DNA of 64,000 nt from Clostridia bacterium (GTDB taxonomy: Bacteria; Bacillota; Clostridia; TANB77; CAG-508): positions 109,955 through 173,954 of the forward strand of contig CAAGKN010000026.1 of assembly GCA_900770415.1 (NCBI GenBank), written 5' to 3'. The notes under the pieces were generated by a model. It was not told the DNA's origin. It saw nothing but the letters and a program-made list of their open reading frames with translations, and did no database searches. The translations under genes were made by a program, and so were the position numbers. Positions 8,659 to 51,497 of the stretch are shown piece by piece (positions within the stretch are counted from its first letter, which is position 1; each line of letters begins with the position of its first letter).

Positions 8659-9738
8659 CTATTTAATTCTTGATAATAATGCTCTTAAAGCGCTTAATAC
8701 TGGAACTGTTTTTTCTTCAACATTAATTACATTTTTATCTAGTATATCAACATTTACATCTGCTGTTGGATCATCTGCTCCATATTCATATTTCATTCCT
8801 GCATCTCCTGAGATTATTTCTTTGTCATTTACTGATGCATCTCCACCTGCTCCTGCAGATACTTTTTCTTTATCTATACTAGCATTTGCTCTTTCACTTA
8901 GTTTTAATGTTAATCTTTGTAATAATGTAATTGTTTGTGTTGCCTTTCCTTCTGCTGAAATTCCATCTTTATTAGCTGTTGCACTTCCGTTTGCATTAAC
9001 ATCCACATCTAGAATTTCTTTATCTTCTACTGTTGTATTAAGTTTACCATTTCCTTCTGCATCTACACCAATTGATCCGTTTTCTATTTTTAATGTTGCT
9101 TTTGCATCTCCTTCAGCTACAACTTTTACTTTTTTGTCTACCATTTCTGCTGTTACTTTACCTGTTGTTGAAACTGATTTTTCTGGAACATTTAATTCAA
9201 TATTACCATCGTATACTGTTGCTAATACTTCGATTTCCTTACCCTCTTTTGTTGTAAATTTTATTGTTGTTGTACCATCGCCTTTAGCTTCTAATATACC
9301 ATCTTTGTATGTAATTATTCCATTATTGTTACTTTCTACTGTTGTAAATTCACCATTAACATTTAATTTTGCATTTAGTCCGTTTTCTATTTTTTCAAAT
9401 TCTAATGTTATGTATTTATCTGTGTTGATTATTTGTTCTTCAGAAATCCATCCTTCACCTGATACATAAATTCCTTTGTTTTTGTTTGGAACTATAATGC
9501 TTATTATACCACAACCTTTTTCTCCTTCTGCATAAGTTTTTCTTACTCTGTTACCGTTATGGAATGTATATGTGTCTCCTTCAAAATAAACCTTTCTGTT
9601 TAATTTTACTTCAACTTGTTTTGTTTCTTCTGGTTTTGTTTCAGTATCAGTTGCTGCAAAGCTCATTGTGCTTACTAAAGATACTAATAATGTTATTAAT
9701 ATTATTACTGAAATTCTAGATTTTAATGTTTGACTCAT
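8659..9738 (-). CDS. Secreted protein, Ig-like (Big_2-type) repeat region, function unknown
   Basis: ATG 9738 after GGGAGG. Signal peptide ...STMSFA. Segment ITYKDGILEAKGDGTTTIKFTTKEGKEIEVLATV. Confidence 0.4.
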   Translation of the reverse strand: MSQTLKSRISVIILITLLVSLVSTMSFAATDTETKPEETKQVEVKLNRKVYFEGDTYTFHNGNRVRKTYAEGEKGCGIISIIVPNKNKGIYVSGEGWISEEQIINTDKYITLEFEKIENGLNAKLNVNGEFTTVESNNNGIITYKDGILEAKGDGTTTIKFTTKEGKEIEVLATVYDGNIELNVPEKSVSTTGKVTAEMVDKKVKVVAEGDAKATLKIENGSIGVDAEGNGKLNTTVEDKEILDVDVNANGSATANKDGISAEGKATQTITLLQRLTLKLSERANASIDKEKVSAGAGGDASVNDKEIISGDAGMKYEYGADDPTADVNVDILDKNVINVEEKTVPVLSALRALLSRIK

Positions 9739-20376: not shown

Positions 20377-20470
20377 GCTAGAACAAAGCGACTTTAGTCG
20401 TCCTTTGTTCTAGCCGATTTGAGTTTCCGAATGAAATGAGGAAATCTCAAAGGCAATAGCGATTATAGCA
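20376..20470 (-). promoter_or_regulatory. Possible extended -10 promoter (TGCTATAAT) plus structured, locally GC-rich leader upstream of the PolC-like operon
   Basis: 13-bp stem GGCTAGAACAAAG/CTTTGTTCTAGCC (20376..20415). Second imperfect hairpin 20418..20452. TGCTATAAT on the minus strand at about 20462..20470. Confidence 0.3.
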
Positions 20471-20553
20471 TTTTTATATACTAGGAAATTTCTCATTTCC
20501 TAGTATATAAAAAACAACTTAATTTGTACTTTTTAATAATACAAATTAAGTTG
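20471..20553 (-). terminator. Two tandem strong hairpins downstream of 20574..21398
   Basis: 19-bp perfect stem TTTTTATATACTAGGAAAT/ATTTCCTAGTATATAAAAA (20471..20513). 14-bp stem CAACTTAATTTGTA/TACAAATTAAGTTG (20515..20553). Confidence 0.6.
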
Positions 20554-20573
20554 TAATTTTTCAATATAGCTGG

Positions 20574-21398
20574 TCACGCAATGCCTTTTCTCTTTTTTAT
20601 TTCATTTATTAGTCTTTGTTTTCCATATTTACTTTCTCCTCCATTAGATAGCATTCCTGAAAAGAAGATAGGAATCTGCTTATCATCTTTATAATTATAA
20701 ACATGGTATGTAATAGGCTTTTCTTCACCGGTTAGTGCTTTTATTATATATTTAGATGCCCTTGCATTGTTTATTAAAATAAATTCAAGAGTTTTTCCTT
20801 TTGCTAGTACCTTTTTTATATGTAAATCTAACATATTCTTTATCTTCTTATCAAAACCTTTATCTGTGTCATTTATCTTCTTGATAAAATTTTTTGAACT
20901 AGTTTCGTGATAATAAAATAAATCTCCTATAAGAATTGTATATTTTCTTTTTAGTTCATTAAAATGTTTTTCTAATATTTTTATATTATTTTCATTTTCT
21001 TTTTTTTCTATTTCTTTTTTTATTTCATCAAATTTTCTATTTTGCCATGAAAAATTAGCTTCATCTTCATCTTTTTCATCTTTTTTATATACCTCATTTA
21101 CTAAATTATATATAGGTTTAAAATAGCCATTATTAACCAGTTTTCCTCTTAATTCCTGTTCCTTTCCCTCTTCTTTATATTTCACATAATTTAAGAATAT
21201 TTTACAATCTTTTTCTCTTTTTACATCCTGTTCATTTCCGGCTGGATTAAGTCCCAATACTAGAATATTCTTTTTCTTTTTATCTATTTCTTCATTAAAA
21301 ATTGCTTCTTCTGGTGTTAAATAAGTATCTTCAGCATTTTTTAACATTTCTTTAGTTAGTTTCCTCATAGTATTACTTATATTTTCTTCATTACTCAT
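20574..21398 (-). CDS. Hypothetical protein (274 aa)
   Basis: ATG 21398 after GGAGG. ILVLGLNPAG motif is reminiscent of UDG-fold/DUF1643-type proteins, but the assignment is not secure. Confidence 0.45.
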   Translation of the reverse strand: MSNEENISNTMRKLTKEMLKNAEDTYLTPEEAIFNEEIDKKKKNILVLGLNPAGNEQDVKREKDCKIFLNYVKYKEEGKEQELRGKLVNNGYFKPIYNLVNEVYKKDEKDEDEANFSWQNRKFDEIKKEIEKKENENNIKILEKHFNELKRKYTILIGDLFYYHETSSKNFIKKINDTDKGFDKKIKNMLDLHIKKVLAKGKTLEFILINNARASKYIIKALTGEEKPITYHVYNYKDDKQIPIFFSGMLSNGGESKYGKQRLINEIKKRKGIA

Positions 21399-21464
21399 CT
21401 TTCTTGCCTCCTTCCTTATTACTTTCATTTTCTAATTTTATTAGCTTCTCCCCATTCTTTTTTC

Positions 21465-22310
21465 CTAATTATTCATTCCAAACTTTATAGTCTGAAATAC
21501 CTTCTTCCAAAATTCTTCTCTTTGAATAATATAACTATCTTTAGTTTTTTTATCAAAAATTTCTAAAATAGCATATGTAAAATTATCTTTAATATATTTT
21601 TCTCCTTGGGCTGGATTCTTTAATATTTCATTGAAAGTTTTGTTACCTCCTGTTAACCCTTTTGCATATGAACACCACCTTTGCCATATGCCATCTTCGC
21701 CAGTTGCAGAACCTATGTAAATTTTTCCATTTGAAGTATCTGTTATTGTATATATTCCCTTTACATTTTCTAAAGCATTTTTCCAGTCTGGTGCTTCGTA
21801 TTTAGCAATAATTCTCAATTCGTTGTGTGACAATAGTACATTATTATATCCATTAAAATCACATAGTCTTGCAGAAGGTGTTACTTCATATATTTCTGGA
21901 TTGAAATCTCTTTGTACATTCTCAAATGGCTTATTATATATATCTCTACCCACTGGTCTATCTAATTTTATTATTAGTCTTTTGATATATTCTTTAAATT
22001 CCTTTTGCAAAGTTAATTTATATCCTATTTCATCATATACTTCTGGTATTATTTTTTCAATTTTATAAAGGCCTCCAAACATATAATAATTGCTTCCATA
22101 TGGATAATATTGTGCAAAGGCAAAAACGTATTCTGCGTCTGCATAATTATTGTTTGCTTGTTTAGATTTCCAAGTGTTCATTTCAATCCATCTATAGTCA
22201 TCACTCAACAATAAATCTAACGCACGTAGACCTCTATTTCCTGCATTCATATTAAATTTTACTTTTGCTTTACCTTTTTTAAATTCAAAAAAATCTTCGA
22301 ACCTTATCAT
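21465..22310 (-). CDS. GIY-YIG nuclease domain protein with unknown about 170-aa N-terminal domain
   Basis: C-terminus KGIYTITDTSNGKIYIGSATG...WQRW...GGN...YAILE...REEFWK matches GIY-(10-11)-YIG plus downstream R/E/N pattern. Confidence 0.7.
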   Translation of the reverse strand: MIRFEDFFEFKKGKAKVKFNMNAGNRGLRALDLLLSDDYRWIEMNTWKSKQANNNYADAEYVFAFAQYYPYGSNYYMFGGLYKIEKIIPEVYDEIGYKLTLQKEFKEYIKRLIIKLDRPVGRDIYNKPFENVQRDFNPEIYEVTPSARLCDFNGYNNVLLSHNELRIIAKYEAPDWKNALENVKGIYTITDTSNGKIYIGSATGEDGIWQRWCSYAKGLTGGNKTFNEILKNPAQGEKYIKDNFTYAILEIFDKKTKDSYIIQREEFWKKVFQTIKFGMNN

Positions 22311-22399
22311 TTAAGCTCCCCCTTATTTAATGTTATCCAGTTAATAATACTATTTGAACTATAGTTAATCAATGTGCTTGGTCACACAATATATGAATT

Positions 22400-23386
22400 T
22401 TATTCATATTTCTTACTTGCTTCCTCTATTATTTCTTTCATTTCATTTCTTAATTCTAATGGTTTTACAACTTCTACACAGTCTATATTTCTCATTGCCC
22501 ACATTTTGAAGCCCATTGAATTTACTTTTAGTTTTATTTTTATAGTTTCATCATTTATTTTTGATATTTTTATGTCTTTTCCAAATAATTCTATAACAGT
22601 ATCTAAAAGAGAGATTGGACATTTTACTTCTATTTCTTCCTTTTTCCCACCAAACATTTCTACTAATGACTCTGCATATTCTTTTATTTCTTTTTGTGTT
22701 ATTTTAGCTGTTCTTTTTTCTTCCAATTCTTTAATGTTTTTTATTCTGTCCAGTCTATAGTTATATAGTTTTTCTTTTCCTTCTTTCAATGCAAGCATGT
22801 AAAATTCCTGTTTGTTATATATAATCGCATACGGTGTTACTATTGGTTTGCTTACAATTTCTTTTGTAATCTTATCATTTATTGCGTATTTCCAATATTC
22901 AAAAGTTATCTTACTTAAATTTTGAATTGCTGTAGATATATCTTCTATATTTTTTATGACTTCCATATTATCTGTTTTAGTATCATTTGCATAAATCATA
23001 TAGTTTTTTAATTTTTCATTTTCATAAACGCTTTGAAGATTTTTACATTTTTTTATAATACTTTTGCTAATTGATGGAACAATGTAATTTGCATAACTAA
23101 ATGTATCAATAATTGCTCTTATTTCTCCTGGTTCAAAGTCCGTTTCCGGATTCTTTATTATGTAGTAACCTTGTCCATTTTCCTCTCTTGTACTTATATC
23201 AAAATCTAGTTTATATTTTAATAAGTTTATATTTCGCCTAATAGTTCTAGGATCAATTTCTACGTCATATATTTCTTCTACTTTTCTTCCTATCTCTGCT
23301 GCTGACATTTTATGATTCTCATCACTATATTTTTTTAATACATTTAATATATATAATATATTTCCATTTTTTTCATACAAATCCAT
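22400..23386 (-). CDS. HTH + WYL domain transcriptional regulator (YafY/BrxR/CapW-like)
   Basis: N-terminal wHTH (MSAAEIGRKVEEIYDVEIDPRTIRRNINLL). Central WYL-like block ITFEYW...VTPYAIIYNKQEFYMLA...LYNYRLDRIKNI. WCX-like C-terminus. Confidence 0.8.
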   Translation of the reverse strand: MDLYEKNGNILYILNVLKKYSDENHKMSAAEIGRKVEEIYDVEIDPRTIRRNINLLKYKLDFDISTREENGQGYYIIKNPETDFEPGEIRAIIDTFSYANYIVPSISKSIIKKCKNLQSVYENEKLKNYMIYANDTKTDNMEVIKNIEDISTAIQNLSKITFEYWKYAINDKITKEIVSKPIVTPYAIIYNKQEFYMLALKEGKEKLYNYRLDRIKNIKELEEKRTAKITQKEIKEYAESLVEMFGGKKEEIEVKCPISLLDTVIELFGKDIKISKINDETIKIKLKVNSMGFKMWAMRNIDCVEVVKPLELRNEMKEIIEEASKKYE

Positions 23387-23414
23387 ACGTTACTCCTTTA
23401 ATGAAAAATTTATG

Positions 23415-23810
23415 CTAATTATATTTTTCGCTCTTATTTCCATATATTTTAATTAAAATATGTAGTTTTCCTCTTTCATCATTTTTATCGTATCTTGAAC
23501 CTCTATTTTCAAATACTATCTCATCATTATGTTTTACTTTGGCTGGAATTTTTACAGTAATTTTTTCTGTATTATGGATATCTAATCCATAGCCAAAACA
23601 TTTAGAGCATTTCTTTGCATCATCATTGTCATGTAAACAATAATCTATGTAATCACATATTATCTCTTTTTCTATGCCTCTTTTTGCTTGTTCTTTTGTT
23701 AATTTTATTTCCACATATTCATCTTTATTTTTGTTTTTAATTTTATCCGAATAAATTTCCAAAAAGAGTTTATATGCTTCCTTATTATCTATTTCAAAAA
23801 TTTCATTCAT
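23415..23810 (-). CDS. Small hypothetical protein, weak DnaJ C-terminal/zinc-finger-like features
   Basis: CSKCFGYG then a beta-rich segment ...GKLHILIKI. First gene of the WYL module. Confidence 0.3.
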   Translation of the reverse strand: MNEIFEIDNKEAYKLFLEIYSDKIKNKNKDEYVEIKLTKEQAKRGIEKEIICDYIDYCLHDNDDAKKCSKCFGYGLDIHNTEKITVKIPAKVKHNDEIVFENRGSRYDKNDERGKLHILIKIYGNKSEKYN

Positions 23811-24059
23811 TATTATCACCAAAATTATTATATCATATATACTTCTTTATTCAAGGTGCTGGTCTTATAATGTACATTTTTATAGTATTAATATATTATT
23901 GCTGTTTTTTTATTGCATGTTCTTCTAATTTAGTTTACTGTATTTCTTAATCTATTTTTTTCTTATGAAGGTTTTCATTTTTTGTGTTAAAATATCATAT
24001 CTTATTTGCTTTTTGTTTATTAATATAATATACTTTATTCATATTAATGGAGGTGTTTT

Positions 24060-48003: not shown

Positions 48004-50178
48004 CTATGCAAAAAAATGCGGAAATCCATCATACATTTTAATTTTGTTTTCTAATTCTTTATGACAATAGAAATCACTTCCATATCCAAAGTTTATTGGT
48101 ATCAATTTGTTTGAAAAAGCCCTAACAACATGAATTTGCTTCATAATAGGCTTGTACTCCATAAAAACAATATCTAAATCTTCTATCTGTCCTTGTTTTT
48201 CTAATTTTATATTATTAGCTTCTACACTATTACCCGTAAATAGAAATTTCACCTTGCTAGATTGATCAGAATAAGCATATAAATTTCCATGTTCTACAGG
48301 AGTACAAACATTCTGAGGTAATATATTTATTTTTTCAGTATTTTCAGAATAAACTATTATTGAATATTCCATTTCATTAAAAGCTTTTTGAATAGCTTCA
48401 TTTATATTATCAAATGAAGTAGCTGCTCCACTTACAAAATATGGTATGCAATCATCTCTGGTCGCACATATAAGTATAGAAAACGCATATAAGTTAGATA
48501 ATGATAAAACCGATATAGAAAATCCTTTATCTTCATATTTATTTATTCGCTTTTGAATGTTTATTGGCAATGAAGTATGACTTATTTTATTAGGAACACT
48601 TTTTAGTAACCATGTTCTCATTAGGGCATCTCTTTCTAATAATTCTGCAACTGCTGATTTTTTTGCTTCATCCAAGTTGAAATGAGCAGCGCATCCGCTT
48701 GAATTAGAATGATGTAGTAATTTTCTACCAACTGACTCTTCTACTAATGGAAAAAAGCAAAAATCAACTGGTATAAGAACTTGATTACCTTTATAATCAA
48801 CTCCTTTTATCCAAAACATCTTATCTTCTTTATTAAAATGCGAAAGATTAAGTTTTCTTATTTGTTCATCTGAATATGGAAAATAGATATCACAATTCAT
48901 TACCTTATCTTTTATTTCTTTTGCACTAGCATGAACATCATAATAAAATCTACCACATATATATCTTTCATATGATTCCATTAATGATTTTGTTGCCGCC
49001 CCAAAAAAAGTTTTATCTATTCCTGTTCCATATCTGTCATTGTCCCTTGATGCTCTAGGTTCAGCTCGATTATAATGTGATACAACAACATTAATACATG
49101 AATTTTCGAGTTCACTATTCTTAACAGCTACAACTTTATCAATTATATTAAGTTTATTGATAAGTTCTTCTTCGAAATTATCAAAATCAATTTTATTTTT
49201 TTCATTATTATTTTTTATACTATCTGATGAATAGCCTATTGCAATGCATGCTATTGGTAATAATTCATTTTTTAATCCTATTAAATTAGAAATTGCCACA
49301 TCTTTGAATCCTCCATATTCTATTGAATTAACTTTCTGTTCTATTGCCTCAACTGTTATATTTTGCAACACATGTCCTACTTCTAATAATGTAAATCTAT
49401 AGCCTCTATTTGAATATTTAGACATATGTCTATTTAAATCCGCTGCAATTACAAATATACATGGAGCTCCAAATATGATACTCTCATCATTAAATGCATA
49501 GATCAATTCTTCATCTGTAATATCTGTTCGTATTTGATTTAATTTTTCATTATCATTATCATATTGATAGATTCCTCTTGGAATCTCATTTGTTCCTTTT
49601 AATAGAATTACAAAGATTGAAAGTGGTGTGAGATTTCCTGCAGATGCTACTGGTTTGATTTCTGAACTATATGAACTTTTACAGATAGAAAATATTTTAT
49701 CAGTTGGTATAGCTCTACTATCAAAATTTCGACAAGAATATCTTTTTTCTAAAAGACTTAAGAAATTTGACCTTTTAACATCCTTTAATTTAATTGATTT
49801 TTTTGATTCTAACATATAATTAGGATGGTTGTTTTGTATTTGAATAACTTTTTCATTATTAAGGCGTTGATAATATAAGCTTGGATTAAATGTTAATGAA
49901 TGTGCACATAACATTTGTTTTCTACTATCTACTAAAATTTTTAAAGAAACAAGATCCTCAATAATTGCTTCTATGTACTTAATATCATTTTTTGTATCTT
50001 CTGCTATTCTCTTTGCTATTGTATCACTTGAAAATGTACCATTACATAGATTTATTATTTTTAATATTAAATCTTTATTAAATCTTATTGTAATTTCATT
50101 GTCTTCAATTCTAAACACCAATAAATTTGAATTAGTATTTATTAAGTGAGCTGAATAATATGGATATAAATCTTCCAT
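48004..50178 (-). CDS. TOMM/LAP biosynthesis fusion protein: PqqD-like RRE + SagB-type FMN dehydrogenase + YcaO cyclodehydratase
   Basis: aa about 20-95: ILKIINLCNGTFSSDTIAKRIA...IIEDLVSLKILV. aa about 130-320: RYSCRNF...AGNLTPL...GYRFTLLEVGHVLQN...GGF. aa about 345-724: ...ESYERY...SSGCAAHFNLDEAKKSAVAELLERDA... ATG 50178 after AAGGGAGGA. Confidence 0.85.
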   Translation of the reverse strand: MEDLYPYYSAHLINTNSNLLVFRIEDNEITIRFNKDLILKIINLCNGTFSSDTIAKRIAEDTKNDIKYIEAIIEDLVSLKILVDSRKQMLCAHSLTFNPSLYYQRLNNEKVIQIQNNHPNYMLESKKSIKLKDVKRSNFLSLLEKRYSCRNFDSRAIPTDKIFSICKSSYSSEIKPVASAGNLTPLSIFVILLKGTNEIPRGIYQYDNDNEKLNQIRTDITDEELIYAFNDESIIFGAPCIFVIAADLNRHMSKYSNRGYRFTLLEVGHVLQNITVEAIEQKVNSIEYGGFKDVAISNLIGLKNELLPIACIAIGYSSDSIKNNNEKNKIDFDNFEEELINKLNIIDKVVAVKNSELENSCINVVVSHYNRAEPRASRDNDRYGTGIDKTFFGAATKSLMESYERYICGRFYYDVHASAKEIKDKVMNCDIYFPYSDEQIRKLNLSHFNKEDKMFWIKGVDYKGNQVLIPVDFCFFPLVEESVGRKLLHHSNSSGCAAHFNLDEAKKSAVAELLERDALMRTWLLKSVPNKISHTSLPINIQKRINKYEDKGFSISVLSLSNLYAFSILICATRDDCIPYFVSGAATSFDNINEAIQKAFNEMEYSIIVYSENTEKINILPQNVCTPVEHGNLYAYSDQSSKVKFLFTGNSVEANNIKLEKQGQIEDLDIVFMEYKPIMKQIHVVRAFSNKLIPINFGYGSDFYCHKELENKIKMYDGFPHFFA

Positions 50179-50210
50179 TATTTTTAATCCTCCCTTAAAC
50201 AATTTAAATT

Positions 50211-50250
50211 AAAATCTAGGTTGCACTATAGACAATGTAACCTAGATTTT
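50211..50250 (-). terminator. Terminator-like hairpin between the precursor and the enzyme gene (possible partial attenuator)
   Basis: 12-bp stem AAAATCTAGGTT/AACCTAGATTTT, 16-nt loop, followed on the minus strand by a U-rich tract. Confidence 0.5.
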
Positions 50251-50259
50251 AATTACTCT

Positions 50260-50421
50260 TTAGCCAGCTCCGCAACCAGAGCCACCTCCTGAGCCACAAT
50301 TTCCTCCACATGCAGCTCCTCCGCCACAACCACCAGAACCACATTGTTGAGCGCTATTAAATGTTGAAGCAATTGAAGTGATTGAAACATTTGTAAGAAT
50401 TTTTAAATTTGAATTATTCAT
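50260..50421 (-). CDS. TOMM/LAP precursor peptide, microcin-B17-like Gly/Cys/Ser core (53 aa; absent from the ORF track)
   Basis: MNNSNLKILTNVSITSIASTFNSAQQ-CGSGGCGGGAACGGNCGSGGGSGCGAG. GGAGGA RBS 6 nt upstream (an alternative ATG at 50427 adds MS-). Immediately upstream of the YcaO fusion. Confidence 0.8.
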   Translation of the reverse strand: MNNSNLKILTNVSITSIASTFNSAQQCGSGGCGGGAACGGNCGSGGGSGCGAG

Positions 50422-50674
50422 ACTCATTCCTCCTATGTCATATTCTATTTTTTAGCGTCACTTCTTAATGTGATTAGATTTTATCATAAGCCGACATTTT
50501 TTTCAACATATTTTCCGAATTTTATCGTATTTTATATTGTTTTTTATTTCGCTAATTTTATAATAATAGTTTTTATTTCGGTATTTCATACGTTATATAT
50601 CGTATGTTATACTGTTTATGTGTATAAATTAATTTGATATACTTAATAATATAATTAATTAAGTGGGTGATCAT

Positions 50675-51013: not shown

Positions 51014-51283
51014 TTATTTTATTCCGGCAATTATCAGTTTTGATGCTAGTTTATAGCCCTCAAGGAACTTTTCTTTACATTCTAAACTTACTATTTGTGA
51101 CTTTTTCTCTATATATTTATTTAATATTTTTTTATCTTTTTCATTTAGCTTATTTTCAATTTCTTTTAATACCGTATTACATTCTTTTAGAATTTTACGG
51201 TATTCATCTGAATTTGATAACTTAATATTTACATTAATTTTTCCATTATATAAATCATCCAAAACATCATCTAATTCATTCAT
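51014..51283 (-). CDS. Small hypothetical helical protein
   Basis: ATG 51283 after GGAGGTG. Convergent with the XRE gene. No motif assigned. Confidence 0.4.
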   Translation of the reverse strand: MNELDDVLDDLYNGKINVNIKLSNSDEYRKILKECNTVLKEIENKLNEKDKKILNKYIEKKSQIVSLECKEKFLEGYKLASKLIIAGIK

Positions 51284-51497
51284 ATAACACACCTCCATAA
51301 TTTACAATGCTAATATATCACCTTTTATTTAAATATTTTGTTAAAATTTGTCGAATAATTACTTTTCTTTGTAATATTTTTCTAATCTAATTGTCTCAGT
51401 GTTAAAACTATTTTTACTTTATGAATTCATTTATTTTCTTGTATATTATAATTTTATATAATATAATTAATTCAGATTTATTTTTTGGGAGGGAAAA

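Follow-up and report, generated by a model that had tools for sequence, protein, structure and literature searches.

The 64-kb window analyzed herein (the whole stretch of 64,000 nucleotides, positions 109,955 to 173,954 of contig CAAGKN010000026.1 in the Clostridia bacterium assembly GCA_900770415.1) carries on its minus strand a gene for a 724-aa protein in which an N-terminal RiPP (peptide that is made by the ribosome and modified after translation) recognition element (RRE), a SagB-type dehydrogenase and a YcaO domain are joined. We consider it likely that this open reading frame (ORF) encodes a synthetase that is self-contained and needs no E1-like protein to make its linear azole peptide (LAP). 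The gene and its domains are located as follows.

48004..50178, minus strand: tri-domain synthetase gene (RRE, SagB-type dehydrogenase, YcaO), from the 724-aa ORF, Pfam/NCBIfam domains and AlphaFold2 model
49894..50178, minus strand: N-terminal RRE (winged-helix) domain, residues 1 to ~95, from the AlphaFold2 model and Foldseek
49219..49803, minus strand: SagB-type flavin mononucleotide (FMN) dehydrogenase domain, residues ~126-320, with Lys254-Tyr255, from TIGR03605 and PF00881
48007..49143, minus strand: YcaO domain, residues ~346-724, with the terminus PHFFA, from PF02624 and invariant motifs

The 724-aa protein starts at an ATG at position 50178, which has a GGGAGG ribosome-binding site 10 nt on its 5' side, and an in-frame TTG at 50202 would yield 732 aa (eight additional residues). 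The sequence-only reading of this DNA had placed three domains on one polypeptide, and the assignment held, as Pfam and NCBIfam models identified the dehydrogenase and YcaO domains and the predicted fold identified the N-terminal one. Residues 144-316 matched the Pfam family Nitroreductase (PF00881, E 5e-16, 59.7 bits against a cutoff of 23.5) and residues 393-687 matched YcaO (PF02624, E 1e-27, 97.6 bits against a gathering cutoff of 25.7), while residues 171-305 passed the NCBIfam SagB model TIGR03605 (90.4 bits against a curated cutoff of 78.4); both of the families for which a profile check had been proposed, PF02624 and TIGR03605, were thus found above their cutoffs. Lys254-Tyr255, which lie inside RHMSKYSNRGYR, were invariant across 25 relatives, and by motif they appear to correspond to Lys201-Tyr202, the catalytic pair of the McbC dehydrogenase (PMC6395948). 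In the YcaO domain, residues E401, E404, R405, E512, E515, R516, D517, K598, E602 and E604 were invariant in the same 25 relatives, as was SSGxAAH at 493-499, and SSGCAAH...ELLERDA of the synthetase was aligned with TNGLASG...EIIERDA of the Methanocaldococcus jannaschii YcaO. From known YcaO structures, we take the invariant acidic and Arg motifs to be the ATP/Mg2+ contacts.

A full-length AlphaFold2 model of the synthetase, with a predicted local distance difference test (pLDDT) score of 85.9 and a pTM of 0.79, consisted of three domains and two low-confidence stretches, residues 93-135 and 321-385. Since these stretches are short linkers, the model would leave no room for an E1-like domain. 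When the model was compared by using Foldseek, the best structural match was LynD, through its RRE and YcaO parts; the YcaO domain further matched MusD, the M. jannaschii and other archaeal YcaOs and McbD, and the dehydrogenase domain matched BmdC and McbC.

Several genes of the window (dnaB and an ABC transporter) are frameshifted, and there are relatives in which RRE-SagB and YcaO genes lie separately next to each other, so that the ORF might be an assembly artefact joining separate dehydrogenase and YcaO genes. This explanation was effectively refuted by the public data, which hold the identical 724-aa protein in independent assemblies, within a 90% cluster of 32 near-identical members (one of them on 173 contigs), and by the many independent assemblies that encode full-length homologues of 700-750 aa.

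The protein ends in GFPHFFA, as had been quoted from the sequence, with alanine as the last residue. In the close family the last five residues are PH[FY]FA, and the termini of the relatives, mostly PHFFA or PHYFA, formed the series PHPFP, PHPFA, PHPYT, PHYFA and PHFFA; the YcaO of one split relative, L067 (related loci are numbered here with the prefix L), terminates in PLPHPFP. The description of the terminus as lacking a clear PxPxP motif was therefore correct as to its non-canonical form, but the graded series still relates it to PxPxP: judging from these termini, PHFFA is a degenerate homologue of the canonical PHPFP and not an unrelated sequence. In McbD and LynD, the C-terminal proline inserts into the active-site pocket (PMC6395948).

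For the N-terminal domain, the RRE fold was shown by structure prediction, because sequence hidden Markov models (HMMs) gave weak matches at most; in a Pfam search with the N-termini of 22 relatives, PF05402 was found in 2/22 at E ~0.095, and the other weak matches were generic winged-helix ones. The domain was modeled by AlphaFold2 from an alignment of 22 sequences, and the resulting model (pLDDT 85 overall and >90 across residues 20-80) comprised four strands (6-8, 11-14, 20-24 and 27-31) followed by three helices (35-44, 51-62 and 66-78). The top 25 Foldseek matches of this model in the PDB were nearly all RREs, including those of LynD, TruD, MibB, PbtF, PqqD, McbB, ThcOx, TbiB1 and a lasso B1 protein; only two of the 25, both structures of lysine methyltransferases, were of another kind. 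The TM-score to the PbtF RRE, normalised by target length, was 0.71. The RRE-like N-terminus anticipated from the sequence alone thus agreed with the predicted fold, and the RRE assignment, which rests on predicted structure, is well supported. Among the three domains the RRE was the least conserved (mean pairwise identity of 0.30 versus 0.44 and 0.38 for the other two), its best-conserved part being the third helix and the following DSR segment, and it was kept at full length by every full-length relative, across many phyla.

The synthetase gene lies within an operon-like arrangement in which the following features were recognized.

50478..50506, minus strand: promoter-like site upstream of the precursor, by consensus match only
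50260..50421, minus strand: precursor peptide gene, 53 aa, leader MNNSNLKILTNVSITSIASTFNSAQQ, core CGSGGCGGGAACGGNCGSGGGSGCGAG, from the ORF and its ribosome-binding site
50207..50254, minus strand: stem-loop and then a U-rich tract between the precursor and synthetase genes, from RNA folding
46494..47963, minus strand: ABC-F ribosomal-protection-type ATPase, 489 aa, proposed self-immunity protein, from NF000355 and NF000167
50675..51007, plus strand: divergent HTH_3 (XRE-type) regulator (PF01381, E 4e-10)
51014..51298, minus strand: DUF6809 protein (PF20648, E 5e-16)

On the minus strand, the order was promoter-like site, precursor, hairpin, synthetase and ABC-F, the last of which begins 40 nt downstream of the synthetase. 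An AGGAGG sequence 7 nt before the second ATG of the precursor gene favours the 53-aa start, as also called in public data, and the Gly/Cys/Ser-rich core of 27 residues has five Cys and three Ser. The hairpin behind the precursor gene (-20.7 kcal/mol, z = -6.4) was more stable than all 200 shuffled sequences and is probably an attenuating terminator between the precursor and synthetase genes. The promoter-like site (TTGAAA, 17 nt, TAAAAT and an extended -10 TG) agreed with the consensus at 10/12, the best score in a region in which the count of consensus matches was no higher than in shuffles. An XRE-type regulator was found at the same position in the related loci L088, L092 and L094, and a divergent helix-turn-helix gene in L001 as well; the DUF6809 gene stands beside the regulator in L088, L092 and L094 and accompanies the module in its closest relatives. 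No protease or exporter is encoded at the window locus, and therefore housekeeping functions would have to supply them.

The family to which this synthetase belongs was found to be sizeable. A search of 90%-identity clusters returned 39 clusters, all with PF00881 and PF02624 and all of 708-730 aa except for one 517-aa fragment. In addition, a survey for the same tri-domain architecture, which the sequence-only reading had recommended, was made by scanning one genome per species and revealed 58 distinct loci with a full-length fused ORF. These loci were mostly in Saccharibacteria and other lineages of the candidate phyla radiation (CPR; Yanofskybacteria, Paceibacteria and Taylorbacteria), and the other carriers were Clostridia, Bacilli, Tenericutes, Mycolicibacterium, Gammaproteobacteria, Bdellovibrionales, Rhodocyclales and Nitrospinaceae, with Actinomycetota also among the family members. 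A profile of the RRE only, searched against 1.84 billion representatives with E up to 0.001, matched 318 clusters (50% identity), mostly of ~720 aa; among the best 150 of these 318, 85 were of at least 680 aa and 19 were of 280-400 aa, which is the length of an RRE plus dehydrogenase, the remainder being fragments. No synthetase homologue was found in the phage collection.

Four relatives encode the enzyme in two genes, at L067 9977-12495, L068 158-2640, L069 9953-12395 and L070 3778-6650. In L067-L069 an RRE-SagB gene of ~325 aa abuts or overlaps a YcaO gene of ~505 aa, and in L070 the two genes are ~20 nt apart and the YcaO ORF has 618 aa. It follows from these split versions that the RRE travels with the dehydrogenase, and that adjacent B and D genes were joined to give the tri-domain protein. 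The YcaOs of L067-L069 have a near-canonical C-terminus and an N-terminal extension of 143-152 residues, strand-then-helix by eye; considered as a second RRE, this extension did not match the RRE profile (hhalign probability of 0.4%), and Pfam gave only faint winged-helix matches.

Candidate precursors accompany much of the family, since short ORFs rich in Gly, Cys and Ser were flagged near the enzyme in 36/58 loci and ~33 of them were convincing; an example found in many Saccharibacteria is MKKLLDVKRTPYDVNVAAAGN-CGGAGCGSGCGGGCGGGGGSCGGGSGCNGGGGGGCGGGGK. The leaders in the family have 17-40 residues and open with a basic, alternating-hydrophobic segment (LKIL, LKVL, LLDVK or KVxV); RREs clamp strands of this hydrophobic kind (PMC6395948). 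Among the four closest Clostridia loci, the enzymes were only 63-74% identical whereas the core hardly varied, and this near-invariance despite 26-37% enzyme divergence therefore points to selection on the product.

A DUF2268 HExxH Zn-protease of ~220 aa (PF10026, E 3e-22) neighbours the enzyme in 46/58 loci, mostly those of CPR, and is probably the leader peptidase of these minimal clusters. Examples are L014 (12401-13063) and L004; the window and its Clostridia relatives are without it, and an HMM built from the DUF2268 neighbours found no homologue in the window.

Several members of the family attracted attention individually. The 40-kb plasmid NZ_CP056081.1 of Rothia nasimurium E1706032, a complete plasmid of a cultured actinobacterium, encodes a full-length homologue (L095, 5305-8076) which ends in PHFIA and is annotated merely as 'YcaO-like family protein'. 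One or two candidate precursor ORFs with the common leader motif LTTLSVxVR lie just upstream of it, and one of their cores, CGNGGSSCNGGGGGGCH, resembles the Mycolicibacterium precursor in L033. The Saccharimonadales contig JBOHNX010000001.1 (556 kb) carries two fused synthetases, L012 and L016, ~300 kb apart, which is notable given the small Saccharimonadales genome. In L001, of the P0016 branch, the enzyme is 38% identical to that of the window and the precursor, which ends in CGGGGGCGGCGGCGGCGGGRYIDTAK, lies downstream. Just upstream of the L001 synthetase, in the place of the ABC-F gene, a gene at 8841-9971 encodes a 376-aa membrane-anchored protein which may have a different immunity or export function. 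This protein was also considered as a C protein and rejected, since it is membrane-anchored and matched no family.

The sequence-only reading had further noted that the operon lacks a separate E1-like partner. The search for such a partner covered the 64-kb window and ~10 kb on each side of the homologues, with neighbour clustering within 7 kb, and the observation held beyond the operon. No E1-like or ThiF-like gene was found in the window operon, and the ten window ORFs not assigned by eye gave no ThiF or TOMM C-protein match (all ten in Pfam and four also in NCBIfam). Among the conserved neighbours in the 58 loci there was no E1/ThiF family, the DUF2268 protease being the only conserved neighbour family, and no gene on the Rothia nasimurium plasmid is annotated as ThiF or E1.

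From these comparative data, the fused RRE would supply leader recognition. This proposal is supported by its being the only RRE found in the cluster and its retention in every full-length relative, by the absence of a conserved E1/ThiF neighbour, and by the short precursor leaders with their strand-like hydrophobic N-terminal segment.

The ABC-F protein encoded downstream has two ABC domains (two PF00005 stretches) and no membrane domain, and it passed the ribosomal-protection model NF000355 (457.3 bits against a cutoff of 380). Regulator, precursor, enzyme and ABC-F genes are found together as a module in L088, L090 and L092 as well, and the ABC-F gene is adjacent to the synthetase in all four loci, in at least three distinct flanking contexts: the flanks of L088 and L090 are unrelated to the window, and L092 shares the downstream transport genes of the window but differs upstream. 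Recombinase, transposase-like or conjugation genes occur near the recurring modules. The ABC-F proteins of three related loci were 82-89% identical to that of the window and thus better conserved than the synthetase (63-74%). This conserved linkage suggests that the ABC-F protein confers producer immunity by ribosome protection, in which case the product would act on the ribosome.

On the basis of these findings, a reaction scheme can be proposed. The N-terminal RRE would take up the short leader, in the region of NLKILTNV, as an additional beta-strand; with ATP, the YcaO domain would then convert the five Cys of the core, and perhaps its three Ser as well, to azolines by cyclodehydration, and the fused dehydrogenase would oxidise these to thiazoles and oxazoles. 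The enzyme is probably dimeric, since nitroreductase-fold and YcaO domains normally dimerise, and its nitroreductase domain would sit where the E1-like domain sits in LynD-type enzymes. By means of the hairpin that follows the precursor gene, the ratio of precursor to enzyme is probably kept high, and the co-transcribed Lsa-like ABC-F protein probably provides self-immunity by ribosome protection, the product then being a translation inhibitor.

Several results weigh against this scheme, and they are considered here together with the alternatives on which they bear. For the RRE, the Foldseek E-values of the N-terminal matches were modest (~0.02-0.9, with probabilities of 0.7-1.0), and no significant sequence HMM was found in Pfam, including PqqD PF05402, for residues 1-112 of the window protein; the PqqD-like winged helix proposed from the sequence was accordingly upheld as to its predicted RRE fold but not as to a match with the PqqD profile. 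In addition, where cyanobactin, LAP and thiopeptide clusters contain RREs joined to a dehydrogenase, these RREs have been described as possibly vestigial (PMC7470986). There are also YcaOs that act alone (PMC7136475), and of the three domains here conservation is lowest in the RRE, so that the RRE-fold domain might be vestigial or purely structural and the YcaO and/or dehydrogenase might recognise the substrate directly, like the bottromycin YcaOs. We regard this as unlikely in view of the full-length retention of the domain in all full-length relatives, the conservation of its third helix and DSR segment, and the lack, in a cluster with clear precursor leaders, of any other candidate for binding them. 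Moreover, RREs typically diverge fast because of co-evolution with their leaders, which counts against a vestigial domain.

With respect to the chemistry, the SagD model TIGR03604 was the best YcaO-type NCBIfam match and yet stayed below its cutoff (106.3 against 219.25 bits), and the terminus departs from the canonical PxPxP of azoline-forming cyclodehydratases. The closest solved YcaO by sequence is the M. jannaschii enzyme for thioamidation of the McrA glycine, and these results would also suit a YcaO domain that performs other backbone chemistry (thioamide or amidine formation) beside a nitroreductase-fold domain with another role. Such a reading is very improbable, however, as the azoline-forming family TIGR03604 was the best by far (1.6e-30, the thioamidation family reaching 3e-12), the fused domain scores above the SagB cutoff with its Lys-Tyr pair intact, Gly-Cys and Gly-Ser are abundant in the cores, like in that of microcin B17, and no TfuA gene is nearby.

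As for the missing partner, the inspected DNA comprised 64 kb of this genome and ~10-kb flanks in the relatives, and a partner gene might lie beyond those flanks. Heterocycloanthracin precursors are encoded away from their enzymes (PMC4603692), and by analogy cyclodehydration might still depend on a C (E1-like) or F (Ocin-ThiF-like) partner whose gene lies at a distance in the genome. The distribution of the family makes this quite improbable: none of the 58 loci has such a gene as a conserved neighbour, the family occurs mainly in CPR and Saccharibacteria with their very small genomes, and the module moves as a unit without such a gene, in at least three genomic contexts and on a plasmid. An E1-independent synthetase is the preferred reading.

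The ribosome is the target predicted from gene linkage. Although the ABC-F protein aligned end to end with the Lsa model NF000167, its score of 625.5 bits was below the cutoff of 750, so that by these models it is Lsa-like and not a called Lsa. Furthermore, microcin B17, whose core has a similar composition, targets gyrase.

Azole installation is usually described as requiring a YcaO, a partner (E1-like or ThiF-like) that binds the leader, and an oxidase as a further protein. The background given in the sequence-only reading, that characterised azole synthetases use an E1-like protein, was incomplete, in that RRE-fused azoline oxidases and partner-free YcaOs are known; fusions of C and D proteins, F-protein-dependent systems, standalone YcaOs and RRE-fused oxidases have all been described (PMC4603692, PMC7136475, PMC7470986, PMC6395948, PMC10634744). 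One of the closest known systems is McbBCD of E. coli, which likewise combines a YcaO (McbD) with a SagB/McbC-type FMN dehydrogenase carrying Lys-Tyr, and the same chemistry is predicted for the window enzyme. The precursor of microcin B17 also has a Gly/Cys/Ser-rich core, and its leader of ~26 residues is bound by the RRE of McbBCD as an extra beta-strand (PMC6395948). However, McbBCD is an octamer of three separate proteins with the RRE on the E1-like scaffold McbB, whereas the window synthetase is one polypeptide without an E1-like domain and with the RRE joined to the dehydrogenase. The immunity proteins would differ as well (the proposed ABC-F protein here and McbEFG in microcin B17), as would the targets, predicted to be the ribosome instead of gyrase.

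Other known enzymes share parts of this arrangement. Among the cyanobactin heterocyclases LynD, TruD and PatD, whose oxidases are ThcOx/PatG-ox, LynD has the RRE followed by the E1-like domain and the YcaO, with a separate oxidase, while here the oxidase is in the middle. ThcOx is a precedent for an RRE fused directly to an azoline oxidase (PMC6395948), but it has two RRE copies and no YcaO. The standalone YcaOs of bottromycin biosynthesis form azolines or amidines without an E1-like or ThiF-like partner (PMC4603692, PMC7136475); unlike the present enzyme, they are without an RRE or fused dehydrogenase and act on a follower-peptide substrate. Klebsazolicin and phazolicin, linear peptides with azole modifications, act as translation inhibitors (PMC6783444, PMC7136475); the product is likened to them by its ABC-F neighbour, but their clusters have separate C, D and B enzymes and rely on an exporter for immunity.

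LAP clusters of CPR bacteria, 110 of them from 93 genomes, were previously reported by genome mining (Sharrar et al. 2020, PMC7298704). As presented in the available portion of that study, they occur in the same taxa with the same minimal set of YcaO, nitroreductase, peptidase and short precursor, a description which fits the split relatives L067-L070 and the DUF2268 neighbour; the YcaO and nitroreductase genes are separate there, and that portion contains no characterisation and no mention of the fusion, the RRE or the missing E1 (PMC7298704). In the literature searched, we found no published natural RRE-dehydrogenase-YcaO fusion, of which a brief mention in a review is possible, and no account of the missing E1-like partner in these clusters; nor did the searchable literature yield a LAP cluster with an ABC-F immunity gene or a DUF2268 protein with a YcaO. 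In its architecture the synthetase represents a new form of a known kind of enzyme, within a sizeable uncharacterised family.

Tentatively, and with rather less confidence than in the synthetase itself, it could be the founding example of a large class of single-polypeptide, partner-free azole synthetases in which the RRE on the dehydrogenase serves both catalytic domains. This class would be the main RiPP machinery of Saccharibacteria and further ultra-small CPR bacteria, and in this Clostridia branch it would make a ribosome-blocking, Gly-rich polythiazole with producer immunity by the ABC-F protein.

If the proposed function is true, this would be the smallest known complete azole synthetase and a peptide-engineering tool of one gene and one leader tag, and it would test whether an E1-like domain is really needed to activate a YcaO. 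The family is abundant in Saccharibacteria and other CPR members that live in the human mouth and gut and have an almost unknown chemistry, and the conserved ABC-F protein points to a possible new ribosome-targeting peptide antibiotic together with a matching resistance of the clinically relevant Lsa type. Cultured carriers, namely Rothia nasimurium with its plasmid and a Mycolicibacterium isolate, make these predictions directly testable.

Elsewhere in the window, dnaB (13028-14363, minus strand) is split by a frameshift just upstream of the Walker A motif, and the binding protein, permease and ATPase genes of a NitT/TauT-type ABC transporter (43638-46333, minus strand) are all split, the ATPase inside GPSGxGKS. 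As an essential gene is broken, assembly indel errors rather than true pseudogenes are suggested. Two paralogous ParE/RelE-like toxin genes, ~38% identical, lie at 507-809 and 42533-43016 (both minus strand), and the second has an overlapping upstream antitoxin-like ORF. Finally, the stretch at ~15700-23900 has a G+C content of 0.245-0.265 versus ~0.28 and holds genes for a DUF4116 protein, a GIY-YIG nuclease-domain protein, a WYL/WCX regulator and a 781-aa protein, as well as several family-less ORFs; it may be a mobile or defence island.

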